A DNA stretch of 31,111 bases from a virus (Duplodnaviria > Heunggongvirae > Uroviricota > Caudoviricetes). How positions within the stretch are numbered: position 1 is the stretch's first letter; each line of letters begins with the position of its first letter. This document shows, one piece after another, positions 1,507-4,419 of this stretch. The notes below the pieces were generated by a model. It made no database searches, had not been told where the DNA came from, and was given only the letters and a program-made list of their open reading frames with translations. Made by a program: the position numbers and the translations under genes. The stretch is taken from IMG/VR virus record IMGVR_UViG_2563366800_000008, one strand, 5' to 3'.

Positions 1507-2106
1507 TCAGCCAGCTTTATTTCGCGTGCTCAGCTTCGGCGCGGCTTGAATCTGTTCATTGGGATCACGTTGTTCAAAAATCTCTCTATCTGCACTGGCT
1601 TCCAAATCAGCTACCATCGGCATTAAAGCGTTCAGCCCACCTTGCATGAAAACCTTAATAACATACTGTTTTTGACGCTCTGTTAAGTTGTCGAAAAGCA
1701 TTATCCATAGGTCCCGAGCTGTTGAGCTTGGTGACGATAAGGCTGAGTCAGGTATAACTGAGCGCTCTTCTACCCCCAAGAATTTCTTTGTTTCTTCTGG
1801 CAAGACCGATACATGATATTCATATGCTTTCGATTTAGCCTTCTTACGTTTCAACTTAGGATTATTACTCACAAGTTGTTCCAGTTTCCGCCGGACATTC
1901 GGCGCTCCACTGGGGAAACCTGGTAGACCAATACAATCCTGAACTGACACCCATTCACTAAAATCAACCATATCATTCACCGTACTTTTCTGTGTTATTG
2001 AAAAATACATCTGGTACTTTTTTGTGATTAACCACGGAAAATCAAGTAACGAATTGATTTTAAATAAAATATCATGGTTAACCTCATCAACCATAAAAGT
2101 ACGCAA
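1507..2106 (-). CDS. c: Mu c-type repressor (winged-helix DNA-binding)
   Basis: 199-aa ORF transcribed away from the early operon, at the left end as in Mu. Segment GGLNALMPMV resembles the Mu repressor as I recall it. ORF-track start is a TTG at 2104-2106; first ATG is at 2092-2094, so the true start is uncertain. Confidence 0.7.
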   Translation of the reverse strand: MRTFMVDEVNHDILFKINSLLDFPWLITKKYQMYFSITQKSTVNDMVDFSEWVSVQDCIGLPGFPSGAPNVRRKLEQLVSNNPKLKRKKAKSKAYEYHVSVLPEETKKFLGVEERSVIPDSALSSPSSTARDLWIMLFDNLTERQKQYVIKVFMQGGLNALMPMVADLEASADREIFEQRDPNEQIQAAPKLSTRNKAG

Positions 2107-2200
2107 AAGTATTTACTTTCGTTCTTTTGTGTTCTAATCTTTACTCGTAGTGGTTAGCGATATTGCTGACCTGAACGTGTAAACATTTAAGGATCGCAGA
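2107..2200. promoter_or_regulatory. Divergent early/repressor promoter and operator region
   Basis: AT-rich 94-bp gap between the leftward repressor and rightward ner. Direct repeats TTTACTTTCG (2112-2121) and CTTTACTCG (2139-2147). Position corresponds to Mu Pe/Pc operators. Confidence 0.5.
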
Positions 2201-2437
2201 ATGATGACCAAAAGCCAAGACTGGCACCCGGAAGACATCAAAGCAGCGATTAGGAAACGTGGGATGACTACCAGTCAGCTCTCCAGAAGCAACGGATTAG
2301 CGGAATCAACATTACGAAATGTATTCCGCCACCACTGGCCGAAAGGGGAAAAAATTATTGCTGAGTTTCTGGGGCTTACCCCCAGAGATATTTGGCCCTC
2401 ACGTTATGAAGCTGTATCAGTCAAAGAGGTTGCATAA
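2201..2437 (+). CDS. ner: Ner-like DNA-binding transcriptional regulator
   Basis: 78-aa ORF; HHWPKGEKIIAEFLGLTPRDIWPSRY resembles Mu Ner. AAGGA Shine-Dalgarno 7 nt upstream. Stop overlaps the transposase start (TAATG). Confidence 0.85.
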   Translation: MMTKSQDWHPEDIKAAIRKRGMTTSQLSRSNGLAESTLRNVFRHHWPKGEKIIAEFLGLTPRDIWPSRYEAVSVKEVA

Positions 2438-4419
2438 TGGATTTCTGGGTTACCGCAAAAGAATGCGTAGGAATTTGTTCTTTTCCTAATGCAGAAAAGA
2501 ACGTCAGAAAACATTTGGAGTCTTTTGTCAGTGGACGTAGTGAACTACGCCGTAAACGTGCTGGCACCAAAGCATTCGAATACCACATATCGGTGTTGCC
2601 ACCTGAAGTCCGCGCTGAACTGCTGGCCGCACGTGGCCTGATTGAAACATCATCCGGGCTGATTACATTGCCACAGGAGCCTGAGCGCGTGGCGGCTGAC
2701 GATCTGGAACGCCAGCGACTGTGGTCTGCATGGGAGAAAGCTACCGGCGAGCAGCGTCTGCATGCAGAACGCCGGACTAAAGCTGCCGCGCTGGTGGCGG
2801 AACTGATGGCTTCCGGCATCGGCAATCGTAAGGCGATCACGCTGGCAGCAAAACAGCTGCAAATCAGTGAAGGTACGCTGCGCAATCTTTACTACAAAGT
2901 CAAAGACCATAGTCCTGACCTCTGGGGTCCGGTACTGCTTGACCGCCGTGTGCGTGAAAAACGTCAGACTGGCCGGACTGCCGATATCTCTGAAGATGCC
3001 TGGCAGTTCTTCCTGGGCGATTATCTGCGAAACGAAGCGCCGTTCTTCTCCAAAAGCTATGAGCGCCTTGAAAAGGCGGCAGATGCTCATGGCTGGATTA
3101 TTCCCGCTGAGCGCACTCTGCGCCGCAAGCTAGAACGTGAAGTTGATCCGCGTATCGTCGTTGCCACCCGTGAGGGCGAGAACGCGCTGGCGCAGATGTA
3201 TCCGTCGCAGCAGCGCACCGTGGCATATCTTCATGCGATGGAGTGGATCAATGGCGACGGTTACCAGCACAACGTGTTTGTCCGTTGGTTTAACGGCGAC
3301 ATCATCCGTCCTAAAACGTGGTTCTGGCAGGATGTCCACAGTCGCAAAATTATTGGCTGGCGTGCTGATTTGTCGGAGAACAGTGACAGCATCCGTTTAT
3401 CCCTGATGGATACCATCCGCGCTTACGGTAAGCCTAAACATGTGACCATCGATAACACCCGCGCTGCTGCAAATAAATGGCTGTCCGGTGGCGTTCCTAA
3501 CCGTTACCGCTTCAAAGTCAAACCTGATGACCCGATGGGGATCATCCCTCTGCTGGGAATGAAGCTGCACTGGACGGGGGTGATTGGCGGTAAGGGCTGG
3601 GGACAGGCAAAGCCCGTTGAACGTGCCTTCGGCGTGGGCGGTCTGGGCGAATATATCGACAAACATCCTGCGCTGGCTGGAGCATTTGCCGGTGAAAACG
3701 TCAGCTCCAAGCCAGAGAACTACGGCAGCCTGGCGGTGGATGTGGATACATTCCTGGAAACCATCAGCGAAGGTGTCGCCATGTTCAACGCGAAGGCCGG
3801 GCGCGAGACCGAGATGTGCCGGGGGGAACTGTCCTTCGACCAGGCGTTTGAGCGCAGCTACAGCCAGTCAGTCATCACCCGTATGACCGAAGAGCAAATT
3901 CGTCAACTGATGCTGCCTGCGGAAGCTGTACGCGTGAAGACTACAGGCGAATTTACGATGGAGTGCGGGGGCTCGTTATTTGGCCGTAAGAATACTTACT
4001 GGAGTGAACAGCTCGTCAGCCACCGCTCGCGCAAAATCACCGTCCGGTTTGATCCAAGGAACCTGCACGGAGAAGTCGCCTGTTATGACCTCGACGGCCG
4101 TTTCCTTTGCATGGCTGAGTGTCGTGCCGCCGTGGCCTTTGGCGATACCGAGGCTGGACGTGAACACAACCGTGCACGCCGCGAGATGATCAAGAGTACG
4201 AAGAAAGCGACTAAGGCTCTGAACCGTATGACGGCGATTGAGGTGAATGACCTGCTGCCGAAGACTGAGCATGCAGAACTGCCGGAGCGGCATGTGGTGG
4301 AGCGTGTATTTACCCTGGGCAACACCGTCAAGCGCGTGGAGGACATACAGGAAACGCAGAGCGAAAACGACGTTATTTTCCAGCAGTTTGTTAATAAGGC
4401 TAAACAGGCACGGAAATAA
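2437..4419 (+). CDS. A: MuA-type DDE transposase
   Basis: 660-aa ORF directly after ner. N-terminal region resembles the repressor DNA-binding domain, as in MuA/c. Size and position match MuA. Confidence 0.9.
   Translation: MDFWVTAKECVGICSFPNAEKNVRKHLESFVSGRSELRRKRAGTKAFEYHISVLPPEVRAELLAARGLIETSSGLITLPQEPERVAADDLERQRLWSAWEKATGEQRLHAERRTKAAALVAELMASGIGNRKAITLAAKQLQISEGTLRNLYYKVKDHSPDLWGPVLLDRRVREKRQTGRTADISEDAWQFFLGDYLRNEAPFFSKSYERLEKAADAHGWIIPAERTLRRKLEREVDPRIVVATREGENALAQMYPSQQRTVAYLHAMEWINGDGYQHNVFVRWFNGDIIRPKTWFWQDVHSRKIIGWRADLSENSDSIRLSLMDTIRAYGKPKHVTIDNTRAAANKWLSGGVPNRYRFKVKPDDPMGIIPLLGMKLHWTGVIGGKGWGQAKPVERAFGVGGLGEYIDKHPALAGAFAGENVSSKPENYGSLAVDVDTFLETISEGVAMFNAKAGRETEMCRGELSFDQAFERSYSQSVITRMTEEQIRQLMLPAEAVRVKTTGEFTMECGGSLFGRKNTYWSEQLVSHRSRKITVRFDPRNLHGEVACYDLDGRFLCMAECRAAVAFGDTEAGREHNRARREMIKSTKKATKALNRMTAIEVNDLLPKTEHAELPERHVVERVFTLGNTVKRVEDIQETQSENDVIFQQFVNKAKQARK

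Follow-up and report, generated by a model that had tools for sequence, protein, structure and literature searches.

The closest described systems for the locus studied here are the early control regions of phages Mu and D108. In Mu, the repressor gene c and the ner-A-B operon are transcribed divergently, and the transposition enhancer is composed of two clusters of binding sequences that are separated by an IHF site and overlap operators O1-O3. The Mu early promoter (Pe) has a 5/6 match at -35 and starts at an A. D108 is heteroimmune with Mu and represents the classic swap of an immunity region on a Mu backbone.

We analyzed a 31,111-nucleotide stretch of viral DNA (hereafter, the window) that carries a transposable, Mu-like E. 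coli prophage, as its ORFs and Pfam domains indicate. The left end of the prophage lies at ~1210, within a GGDEF diguanylate-cyclase gene, and the gene order from this end inwards is a leftward repressor followed by rightward ner, transposase A and B. As in Mu, c-like and ner-A-B genes diverge from an intergenic region of ~230 bp; the corresponding gap is 235 bp between the annotated genes of the RefSeq Mu record. From the sites described below and the parallel with Mu, we conclude that the 229 bp between the 154-aa Mu-family repressor and ner probably constitute a Mu-type early control region that works as we propose. Its logic is ordinary and control regions of this kind are known, but its immunity type is new.

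Genes and extent of the control region

The genes that define the locus, together with the region between them, are as follows.

1507..1971, minus strand: repressor gene (c-like), 154 aa, probable start at ATG 1971 as in its homologues; HTH_Tnp_Mu_1, E = 1.4e-8
1972..2200, no strand: full repressor-ner control region, 229 bp, 32% GC, with the repressor start at 1971
2189..2193, plus strand: ner Shine-Dalgarno sequence AAGGA, read directly and invariant in 7 loci
2201..2437, plus strand: ner gene, 78 aa; Pfam HTH_35, E = 8.6e-31
2437..4419, plus strand: transposase A; Pfam DDE_2, HTH_Tnp_Mu_1, HTH_Tnp_Mu_2 and Mu-transpos_C

An earlier note on this DNA had proposed a divergent repressor/ner switch of a Mu-like element, and the Pfam domains in the repressor, in Ner and in the adjoining transposase support this assignment. 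The region occupies the Mu-type position, between a leftward Mu-family repressor and rightward ner-A-B near the left end of the prophage. The switch was correctly recognized in that note; the boundaries and candidate sites given for it were wrong. The gap of 94 bp that it described holds only if the repressor starts at TTG 2106, whereas the homologue-backed ATG at 1971 gives 229 bp. Because the repressor very probably starts at this ATG (see below), we take the control region to be 1972-2200, of which the 94-bp stretch is the right-hand 40%. The description of that stretch as AT-rich was accurate (36% GC in 2107-2200 compared to 53% in the whole window).

The repressor matches the winged-helix "Mu DNA-binding domain" (PF02316) with 35.6 bits, above the Pfam cut-off of 23.3, and resembles, though only weakly (E = 0.41), the solved structure 1TNS of the MuA N-terminal domain. 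Despite the shared organization, there is no detectable DNA similarity between Mu and positions 1200-2500 of the window, and the proteins have diverged: the repressor is 28% identical to Mu Rep (E = 0.001), and the transposase is 51% identical to the Mu, D108 and SfMu transposases. The closest characterized Ner is that of D108 (58% identity, compared to 49% for Mu Ner). The repressor and operator DNA of D108 is unrelated to that of the window. A nucleotide search with positions 1200-2500 of the window gave no match among 50,697 phage records, and the control region is thus common to no phage characterized in that set. An Rfam search with the whole window also gave no match. With regard to the C-terminal oligomerization and protease-sensitive region expected of this family, the window repressor and Mu Rep both have a GGL.ALMP motif and end in a K-A-(G/V) tail.

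The prophage is 100% identical in E. coli strains ECONIH4 and CAVP776 and 99.9% identical in EC09. The host flanks of the ECONIH4 copy differ from those in the window, and the genes that harbor the related elements of ECONIH5 and VREC0864 are different again. Across the 229 bp, six other copies are 100% identical. Viral and metagenome contigs yielded only 100%-identical copies, which are uninformative for footprinting, and no further homoimmune relatives were found in GTDB species genomes. The footprint for the immunity type of the window therefore draws on two diverged relatives only, L005 and L006, whose repressors are 86% and 84% identical to that of the window. A ner-anchored search added two Trabulsiella loci to the more distant set. 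The control region is likewise 229 bp long in both L005 and L006, and measures 227 bp in L012 and 234 bp in L002. Alignment of the window with L005 and L006 reveals conserved blocks at 1972-2039 and 2095-2200 that flank a variable spacer at 2040-2094.

Candidate repressor sites flank a candidate IHF site

Within the control region we noted a short T-rich motif, RTACTTTT, with four matches in the 31 kb, all located between 1982 and 2112 (at 1982 and 2014 on the plus strand and at 2102 and 2112 on the minus strand). The expected count is 1.07, and a count of four was reached by 0 of 100 shuffles. When the 229 bp were shuffled locally, only 7 of 5000 shuffles contained some non-trivial 7-mer at least four times; low-complexity and overlapping k-mers were excluded from this test. 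The motif copies and neighboring elements give the following candidate sites.

1982..1994, plus strand: candidate repressor site of the left cluster, GTACTTTTCTGTG; direct-repeat family D1, conserved block A of alignment A2
2014..2026, plus strand: candidate repressor site of the left cluster, GTACTTTTTTGTG; spaced 32 bp from the copy at 1982
2047..2059, minus strand: candidate IHF site, AATCAATTCGTTA (WATCARNNNNTTR); perfect consensus, between the site clusters
2090..2102, minus strand: candidate repressor site of the right cluster, GTACTTTTATGGT; inverted repeats I2 and I3
2100..2112, minus strand: candidate repressor site of the right cluster, ATACTTTTGCGTA; 10 bp from GTACTTTTATGGT and invariant in L005 and L006
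2121..2133, plus strand: weaker candidate repressor site in the promoter spacer, GTTCTTTTGTGTT; third member of D1, PWM score 13.1

The left cluster is formed by two GTACTTTTYTGTG repeats, at 1982 and 2014, and the right cluster spans 2090-2133, over the predicted early promoter. The RTACTTTT copies fall in the two blocks that are conserved in L005 and L006, with the variable spacer between them. At the edge of this spacer, the core of the 2090-2102 site (2095-2102) is invariant in both relatives while its outer bases (2090-2094) vary. The GTTCTTTTGTGTT copy, 77% identical to the reference copy of D1, is likewise invariant in both, and a fifth, degenerate TACTTT core is present at 2114-2119. 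Enrichment, clustering and conservation together suggest that the TACTTTT copies are likely to be repressor sites. The literature searched yielded no published repressor consensus for comparison.

The IHF consensus at 2047-2059 is one of only two matches in the 31 kb. It lies in the variable spacer, and the corresponding sequences of L005 and L006 (AATCAGTAAGTTA and AATCAAACGATTA) retain every consensus position but have other bases at all four N positions. Relative to the ner ATG, the match lies at -154 in the window family, -152 in L002, -151 in L012 and -152 in Mu; its position is thus fixed across four immunity types, including that of Mu, in otherwise unalignable sequences. These observations make it very likely that 2047-2059 is an IHF site. 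At the sequence level, the locus therefore has two repeat clusters separated by an IHF consensus, as in the Mu enhancer, where short T-rich repeats (CTTTTY in Mu, TACTTTT in the window) similarly flank an IHF site ~152 bp 5´ of ner. The two differ in their site motif and in the strand that carries the IHF core, which in the window is opposite to that in Mu. A clear O3-like cluster, present in Mu, was not found in the control region of the window, and D108 has no exact IHF consensus in the stretch examined.

Predicted early promoter and candidate Ner operator

Since a strict consensus scan of 1972-2200 reported no promoter, we used a relaxed weight-matrix scan with heuristic weights. The best rightward candidate and the symmetric elements adjacent to it are listed here.

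2112..2117, plus strand: predicted -35 hexamer, TTTACT (TTTACA in L005 and L006), of the best rightward promoter candidate
2135..2140, plus strand: predicted -10 hexamer, TAATCT, after a 17-bp spacer; relaxed scan, collinear with Mu and relatives
2139..2147, plus strand: CTTTACTCG, from the last two bases of the predicted -10 hexamer to the predicted start; TTTAC(T/A)CG column in relatives
2152..2171, no strand: dyad GGTTAGC-N6-GCTGACC, with covariation across 7 loci
2177..2184, no strand: right arm of an outer inverted repeat, CGTGTAAA, conserved in all relatives

The predicted early promoter, with a transcription start predicted near 2147, matches the consensus at only 4/6 and 3/6 positions; the TTTACA of L005 and L006 is a better match to the -35 consensus than the TTTACT of the window. 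Its position is collinear with TTTACA-17-TATCTT at 993-1021 of Mu, with TTGAAT-16-TATATT in L002 and with TTTACA-17-TATCTT in L003, as well as with hexamers taken from alignment A5 in L011 (TTTACA-17-TATATT) and L012 (TTTACA-17-CATTCT). In Mu, the two hexamers end 7 nt short of the mapped Pe start at position 1028. As in Mu, a promoter of the form TTTAC(A/T)-17-TA(T/A)(C/T)(T/C)T would lie under the right cluster of the window, where the candidate sites at 2100-2133 overlap the best promoter candidate, itself weak relative to consensus. Given this collinearity, we consider the placement of the early promoter (TTTACT-17-TAATCT) to be likely correct. The second TTTACT, at 2140, was rejected as a -35 hexamer, as there is no -10 hexamer at the right distance from it.

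For the repressor promoter (Pc), which Mu has, the same relaxed scan gave weak candidates only, none of which we adopted: TTGGCT(2218)-17-TGcGATCCT(2190) and TTAATC(2031)-18-TATTTT(2002).

Just 3´ of the predicted start, in a position like that of the dyads found just 3´ of the early start in Mu and directly 3´ of the early promoter in D108, is the dyad at 2152-2171. Across the 7 loci, 98% of its cells are paired and three pairs are changed on both sides, its symmetry was matched by 0 of 500 shuffles, and RNAalifold selects the same stem at 2152-2171. The dyads at the equivalent place are CTAAGT-N6-ACTTAG in Mu and CCGTGAGCTAC-N8-GTAGCTCACGG in D108, which are the Ner operators mapped by footprinting in these phages; the D108 dyad differs from that of the window in having 11-bp arms around N8 rather than 7-bp arms around N6. 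An outer inverted repeat, with CTTTACTCG (2139-2147) as its left arm and CGTGTAAA as its right arm, surrounds the dyad.

On balance, we favor, at slightly better than an even chance, the assignment of 2152-2171 as a Ner operator. The same symmetry, together with the CTTTACTCG region, could instead, though this seems unlikely, give the ner-A-B RNA a stem-loop in its 5´ leader that affects stability or translation. Compensatory changes at three pairs keep the stem, and with a single exception the imperfect cells are G.T on the plus strand and hence G.U in the early RNA, both of which would fit a leader hairpin. The recognition helix of Ner is nearly invariant while the sequence of the dyad varies, a pattern that suits a hairpin about as well as an operator. 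The presence of dyads at the equivalent position in Mu and D108 argues for an operator, as does the GTGAGC contained in the D108 half-site, which recurs in L002. Additionally, Ner residues 30/31 (SN, IN, CH or SH) change together with dyad position 4. Against a leader hairpin, the single-sequence fold does not use it and the z-score is only -1.7, and the TTTAC arm of the outer inverted repeat would be absent from the early RNA since it lies upstream of the predicted start.

The repressor start codon

The extent of the control region depends on where the repressor starts. Upstream of ATG 1971, alternative starts are available at TTG 2106 (the longest ORF) and ATG 2094 (the PGAP call, 195 aa). 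The repressor type is rare, with three 90%-identity clusters among 5.8 billion proteins, and besides the PGAP form, the only close homologues in this set are P0002 (86% identical) and P0003 (84% identical), both of which are 154 aa. Mu-type repressors that are more distant, those of L002 (ECONIH5) and L012 (Trabulsiella), have their start at the residue aligned with it, with a strong AGGAGG just 5´ of the repressor ATG in L002. A Shine-Dalgarno sequence, GGTGA or GAGGA, is found 5-6 nt 5´ of ATG 1971, and the alignment of the repressor with its own transposase begins at residue 2 of the former and residue 1 of the latter.

Substitution patterns also point to a start at 1971. When the window is compared with L005 and L006, the 135-nt extension has its substitutions evenly distributed over the three codon positions (13/12/11 and 9/8/6), whereas the core CDS has 16/9/28 and 14/10/22, a coding pattern. 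The density of substitutions is 27% in the extension compared to 11% in the core, and the amino-acid changes in the extension would be radical. Judged by these comparisons, the 135 bp upstream of ATG 1971 (1972-2106) evolve as non-coding DNA. We therefore hold it highly likely that repressor translation starts at ATG 1971, and the RefSeq start (195 aa) probably is 41 codons too long.

A longer repressor of 195-199 aa, started at 2094 or 2106, or the production of both forms, would place the left site cluster and the IHF site within 5´ coding sequence. In the window, L005 and L006, 47 codons of the upstream frame indeed contain no stop, although 23-36 substitutions have occurred (P ~ 0.017 from composition alone), and because it is open in all three family members, some small probability remains with a longer isoform. 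The 195-aa form also is the one used by PGAP and by cluster P0001, and there is a parallel in Mu, where the c ORF (339-929, 196 aa, TTG start) reads through its CTTTT sites, with the three leftmost sites located within the first codons. We nevertheless regard the longer protein as improbable: besides the missing codon-position bias, the radical changes in the extension and the 154-aa gene calls for P0002 and P0003, L005 has no ATG at the position of 2094, there is no Shine-Dalgarno sequence before 2094, 2106 or 2010, and in-frame stops occur 16 codons upstream in L012 and 11 codons upstream in L002. With the start at 1971, the window repressor is shorter than that of Mu (154 versus 196 aa), which is why the left cluster of the window would lie outside the coding sequence.

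Two short strings within the predicted early promoter

The earlier note had drawn attention to two strings ~27 bp apart, and these are present, TTTACTTTCG at 2112-2121 and CTTTACTCG at 2139-2147, with starts 27 bp apart. Each is unique in the window, and without gaps they have only the 6-mer TTTACT in common. When the 94 bp were shuffled with dinucleotides preserved, a direct repeat of 6 nt without overlap arose in 2926 of 5000 shuffles (59%), which places the observed repeat no higher than chance. Nor is the 6-mer conserved, as its first copy is altered in L005 and L006, where the string reads TTTACATTCG and TTTACT is changed to TTTACA.

The first string comprises the predicted -35 hexamer and the degenerate TACTTT copy, and we read it as a -35 hexamer because the promoter candidate is collinear with Mu and the relatives. 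Together with the neighboring motif copy it makes up a small palindrome, AAAGTA-TT-TACTTT, and thus could be touched by the repressor. For the second string, TTTAC(T/A)CG is found at the same column in L002, L003 and L011, whose repressors differ from that of the window, those of L003 and L011 binding DNA through an HTH_3 domain rather than one of Mu type; this string consequently cannot be specific to the window repressor. Both strings most likely are parts of the early promoter rather than repressor sites.

The model in which the control region is 2107-2200 and TTTACTTTCG and CTTTACTCG form a pair of repressor half-sites can draw on the presence of both strings, on the TACTTT core in the first (the fifth copy of the enriched motif) and on the ~94-bp gap left by the longest ORF (and roughly by the PGAP annotation), but it is very improbable given a shared 6-mer at chance level, a first copy that is TTTACA in both close relatives, a second kept in heteroimmune loci with other repressors (HTH_3-type ones among them), the coincidence of the strings with -35 and -10/+1 elements, and the location of the strongest motif copies (1982 and 2014) outside the 94 bp. 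The related proposal that the 94-bp gap holds the operators and both promoters stands in part: the early promoter and part of the operators very probably are within it, and the left cluster and IHF site, at 1982-2059, are outside, in sequence that the note had assigned to the repressor gene.

Proposed operation of the switch

From the layout of the sequence and by analogy with Mu, which are our grounds for the protein-DNA contacts, transcription starts and enhancer activity suggested here, we propose the following scheme. The winged-helix domain of the repressor would bind the repeated sites with the (G/A)TACTTTT core, the two direct copies at 1982 and 2014 serving as an O1-like cluster and the two or three copies at 2090-2133 as an O2-like cluster over the -35 hexamer and spacer. 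IHF bound at 2047-2059 would bend the DNA such that repressor at both clusters could cooperate, and occupied sites would keep RNA polymerase off the early promoter. This promoter, starting near 2147, would drive ner, A and B. After induction, Ner might bind the dyad at 2152-2171 and damp early, and presumably also repressor, transcription.

The two clusters with the IHF site might double as the transposition enhancer, where repressor would compete with transposase. The N-terminal ~76 aa of the transposase are homologous to the DNA-binding domain of the repressor (43% identity, E = 3e-21), an identity of ~40% that is matched in Mu, where the repressor and transposase N-terminus are 41% identical, and on this basis the same sites could be expected to serve both proteins. 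If enhancer and operator are the same, the transposase N-terminus should track its own repressor. Among the window, L002 and L012, this covariation was not seen (41% identity to the own repressor compared to up to 50% to a foreign one), and the identity of enhancer and operator thus is without its predicted covariation. Weighing the Mu-like layout and the domain homology against this result, we consider an enhancer function of the two clusters and IHF site to be evenly poised.

Comparison with heteroimmune sister prophages

Two E. coli strains, ECONIH5 (L002) and VREC0864 (L003), as well as Trabulsiella guamensis (L011 and L012), contain sister prophages that encode Ner proteins 81-86% identical to that of the window. 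Around the ner ATG, hardly any variation is seen between about -25 and +30, and the scaffold of promoter and dyad is the same as in the window. They differ in carrying separate immunity cassettes. L002 has a Mu-type repressor with CGATTTT repeats and L012 a Mu-type repressor with TTCTTTT repeats, whereas L003 and L011 have an HTH_3 repressor, a 184-bp region and GCGAAT-type palindromes, with no IHF consensus. In the lineage that shares this scaffold, winged-helix repressors of Mu type thus come in at least three specificities (site cores TAC-TTTT, CGA-TTTT and TTC-TTTT), and the same C-terminal domain also occurs fused to a DNA-binding domain of the unrelated HTH_3 type.

A more far-reaching reading, which we put forward only tentatively and regard as unlikely, is that the lineage maintains a rigid scaffold (IHF ~152 bp from ner, promoter at -89/-61, Ner dyad and invariant ner 5´ end) into which immunity cassettes are swapped, with enhancer and operator separate in some members. 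Separate sets of sites for the two functions are conceivable because the transposase N-terminus does not track its own repressor. If true, such a separation would break the competition between repressor and transposase that is thought to be central to Mu regulation. The results obtained for the window leave the current understanding of Mu regulation unchallenged.

The interest of the locus is modest and resides in a mis-annotated start codon, an IHF position that is fixed in heteroimmune relatives and a series of operator specificities. Its main value is in correct annotation, of the repressor start, of operators and an IHF site hidden in a false extension of the gene, and of "repeats" that are promoter elements. 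Beyond this, the window and its sister prophages make up a natural series of Mu-type winged-helix repressors on a fixed scaffold, whose site motifs have a TTTT core in common and vary in the triplet 5´ of it. Such a series could be used to learn how the winged-helix fold reads DNA, and for orthogonal Mu-based switches or mini-Mu tools.

The repeated motif is particular to each immunity type, whereas its offsets, to either side of the IHF site, are similar. Measured from the ner ATG, they are as follows.

Window, TACTTT: -218, -186, -100 and -90
L002, CGATTT: -218, -187, -135 and -82
L012, TTCTTTT: -216, -192, -173, -168, -101 and -80
Mu, CTTTTY: -208, -193, -177, -111, -96, -95 and -80

In all four motifs, a T-run follows a type-specific trinucleotide. 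We infer that the conserved wing (RKR.G.KA.EY) may read the T-run while the variable helix-turn-helix reads the 5´ triplet, an assignment based on the Mu repressor-DNA structure.

A dyad between the predicted early promoter and ner

Between the predicted early promoter and ner we noted an inverted repeat in the window, which is also found in six related loci: the two nearest relatives, of the same immunity family (L005 and L006), and four heteroimmune prophages, two from E. coli (L002, the sister prophage in ECONIH5, and L003, in VREC0864) and two from Trabulsiella guamensis (L011 and L012).

2152-2171, dyad of the form 7-N6-7

Across these seven sequences, compensatory changes at three pairs keep the dyad symmetric, and all but one of the imperfect cells are G.T on the plus strand. 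As judged from the sequences, two readings of the dyad stand side by side: an operator for Ner, in co-evolution with residues 30/31 of that protein, or an early-leader RNA hairpin.

Downstream, between about -25 and +30 relative to the ner ATG (2176-2230), the nucleotides are almost invariant in the window and the four heteroimmune loci, even between loci that are only ~77% identical overall. Immunity cassettes may recombine at this joint, or a second signal, for example the promoter of the repressor gene, may overlap the stretch. Position 2806 of locus L001 is the counterpart of ~2515 in the window.

Repressor architecture and start

For comparison with the window repressor gene (1507-1971), we took the HTH_3-type repressor genes of the E. 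coli VREC0864 prophage and one T. guamensis prophage.

L003 1822-2343, HTH_3-type repressor gene
L011 595-1116, HTH_3-type repressor gene

These repressors have a C-terminal part in common with the Mu-type repressors, with GL.GLMP and EIFEQ in both types, as well as a tail whose last residues are T(R/Q)NKAG; from the protein sequences, it looks like the DNA-binding domain was swapped onto a common C-terminal domain.

The repressor is annotated in RefSeq as a 195-aa form. In the window, L005 and L006, the reading frame 5´ of the repressor ATG (1972-2106 in the window) is open for 47 codons (P ~0.017 from composition alone), although its substitution pattern is like that of non-coding DNA. In heteroimmune relatives, this frame is closed by stop codons that lie 11-16 codons 5´ of the repressor ATG. 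A perfect 10-nt direct repeat, ATCAACCATA, is present at 1963-1972 and 2086-2095 of the window and absent from the compared L005 and L006 loci. Both copies read ATG GTT GAT (M-V-D) on the minus strand, and they coincide with the supported repressor start (1971) and the PGAP start (2094).

The prophage left end and insertion sites

The left end of the prophage lies at ~1210, and two kinds of repeat are found close to it.

1230, 1358 and 1400, direct copies of TGGATCRWW, spaced 128 and 42 bp apart
1248-1282, tandem repeat of a ~10-bp unit, CGGGAATTAA x 3.5, immediately inward of the left end

The TGGATCRWW triple resembles the L1-L2-L3 layout of the Mu transposase sites; across the whole window the motif is not enriched (9 matches, 5 expected). 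Similar to the tandem repeat, Mu has a GGGA-periodic stretch at 31-80, in the area of its packaging site.

The host gene split by the prophage (1-1209) encodes a PAS-GGDEF diguanylate cyclase. In ECONIH4, the same prophage has inserted into another prophage, in one of its tail-assembly genes. Related elements are inserted in narX in ECONIH5 and in an RHS gene in VREC0864. These differing insertion genes suggest recent transposition or independent infections for the prophage and the related elements.
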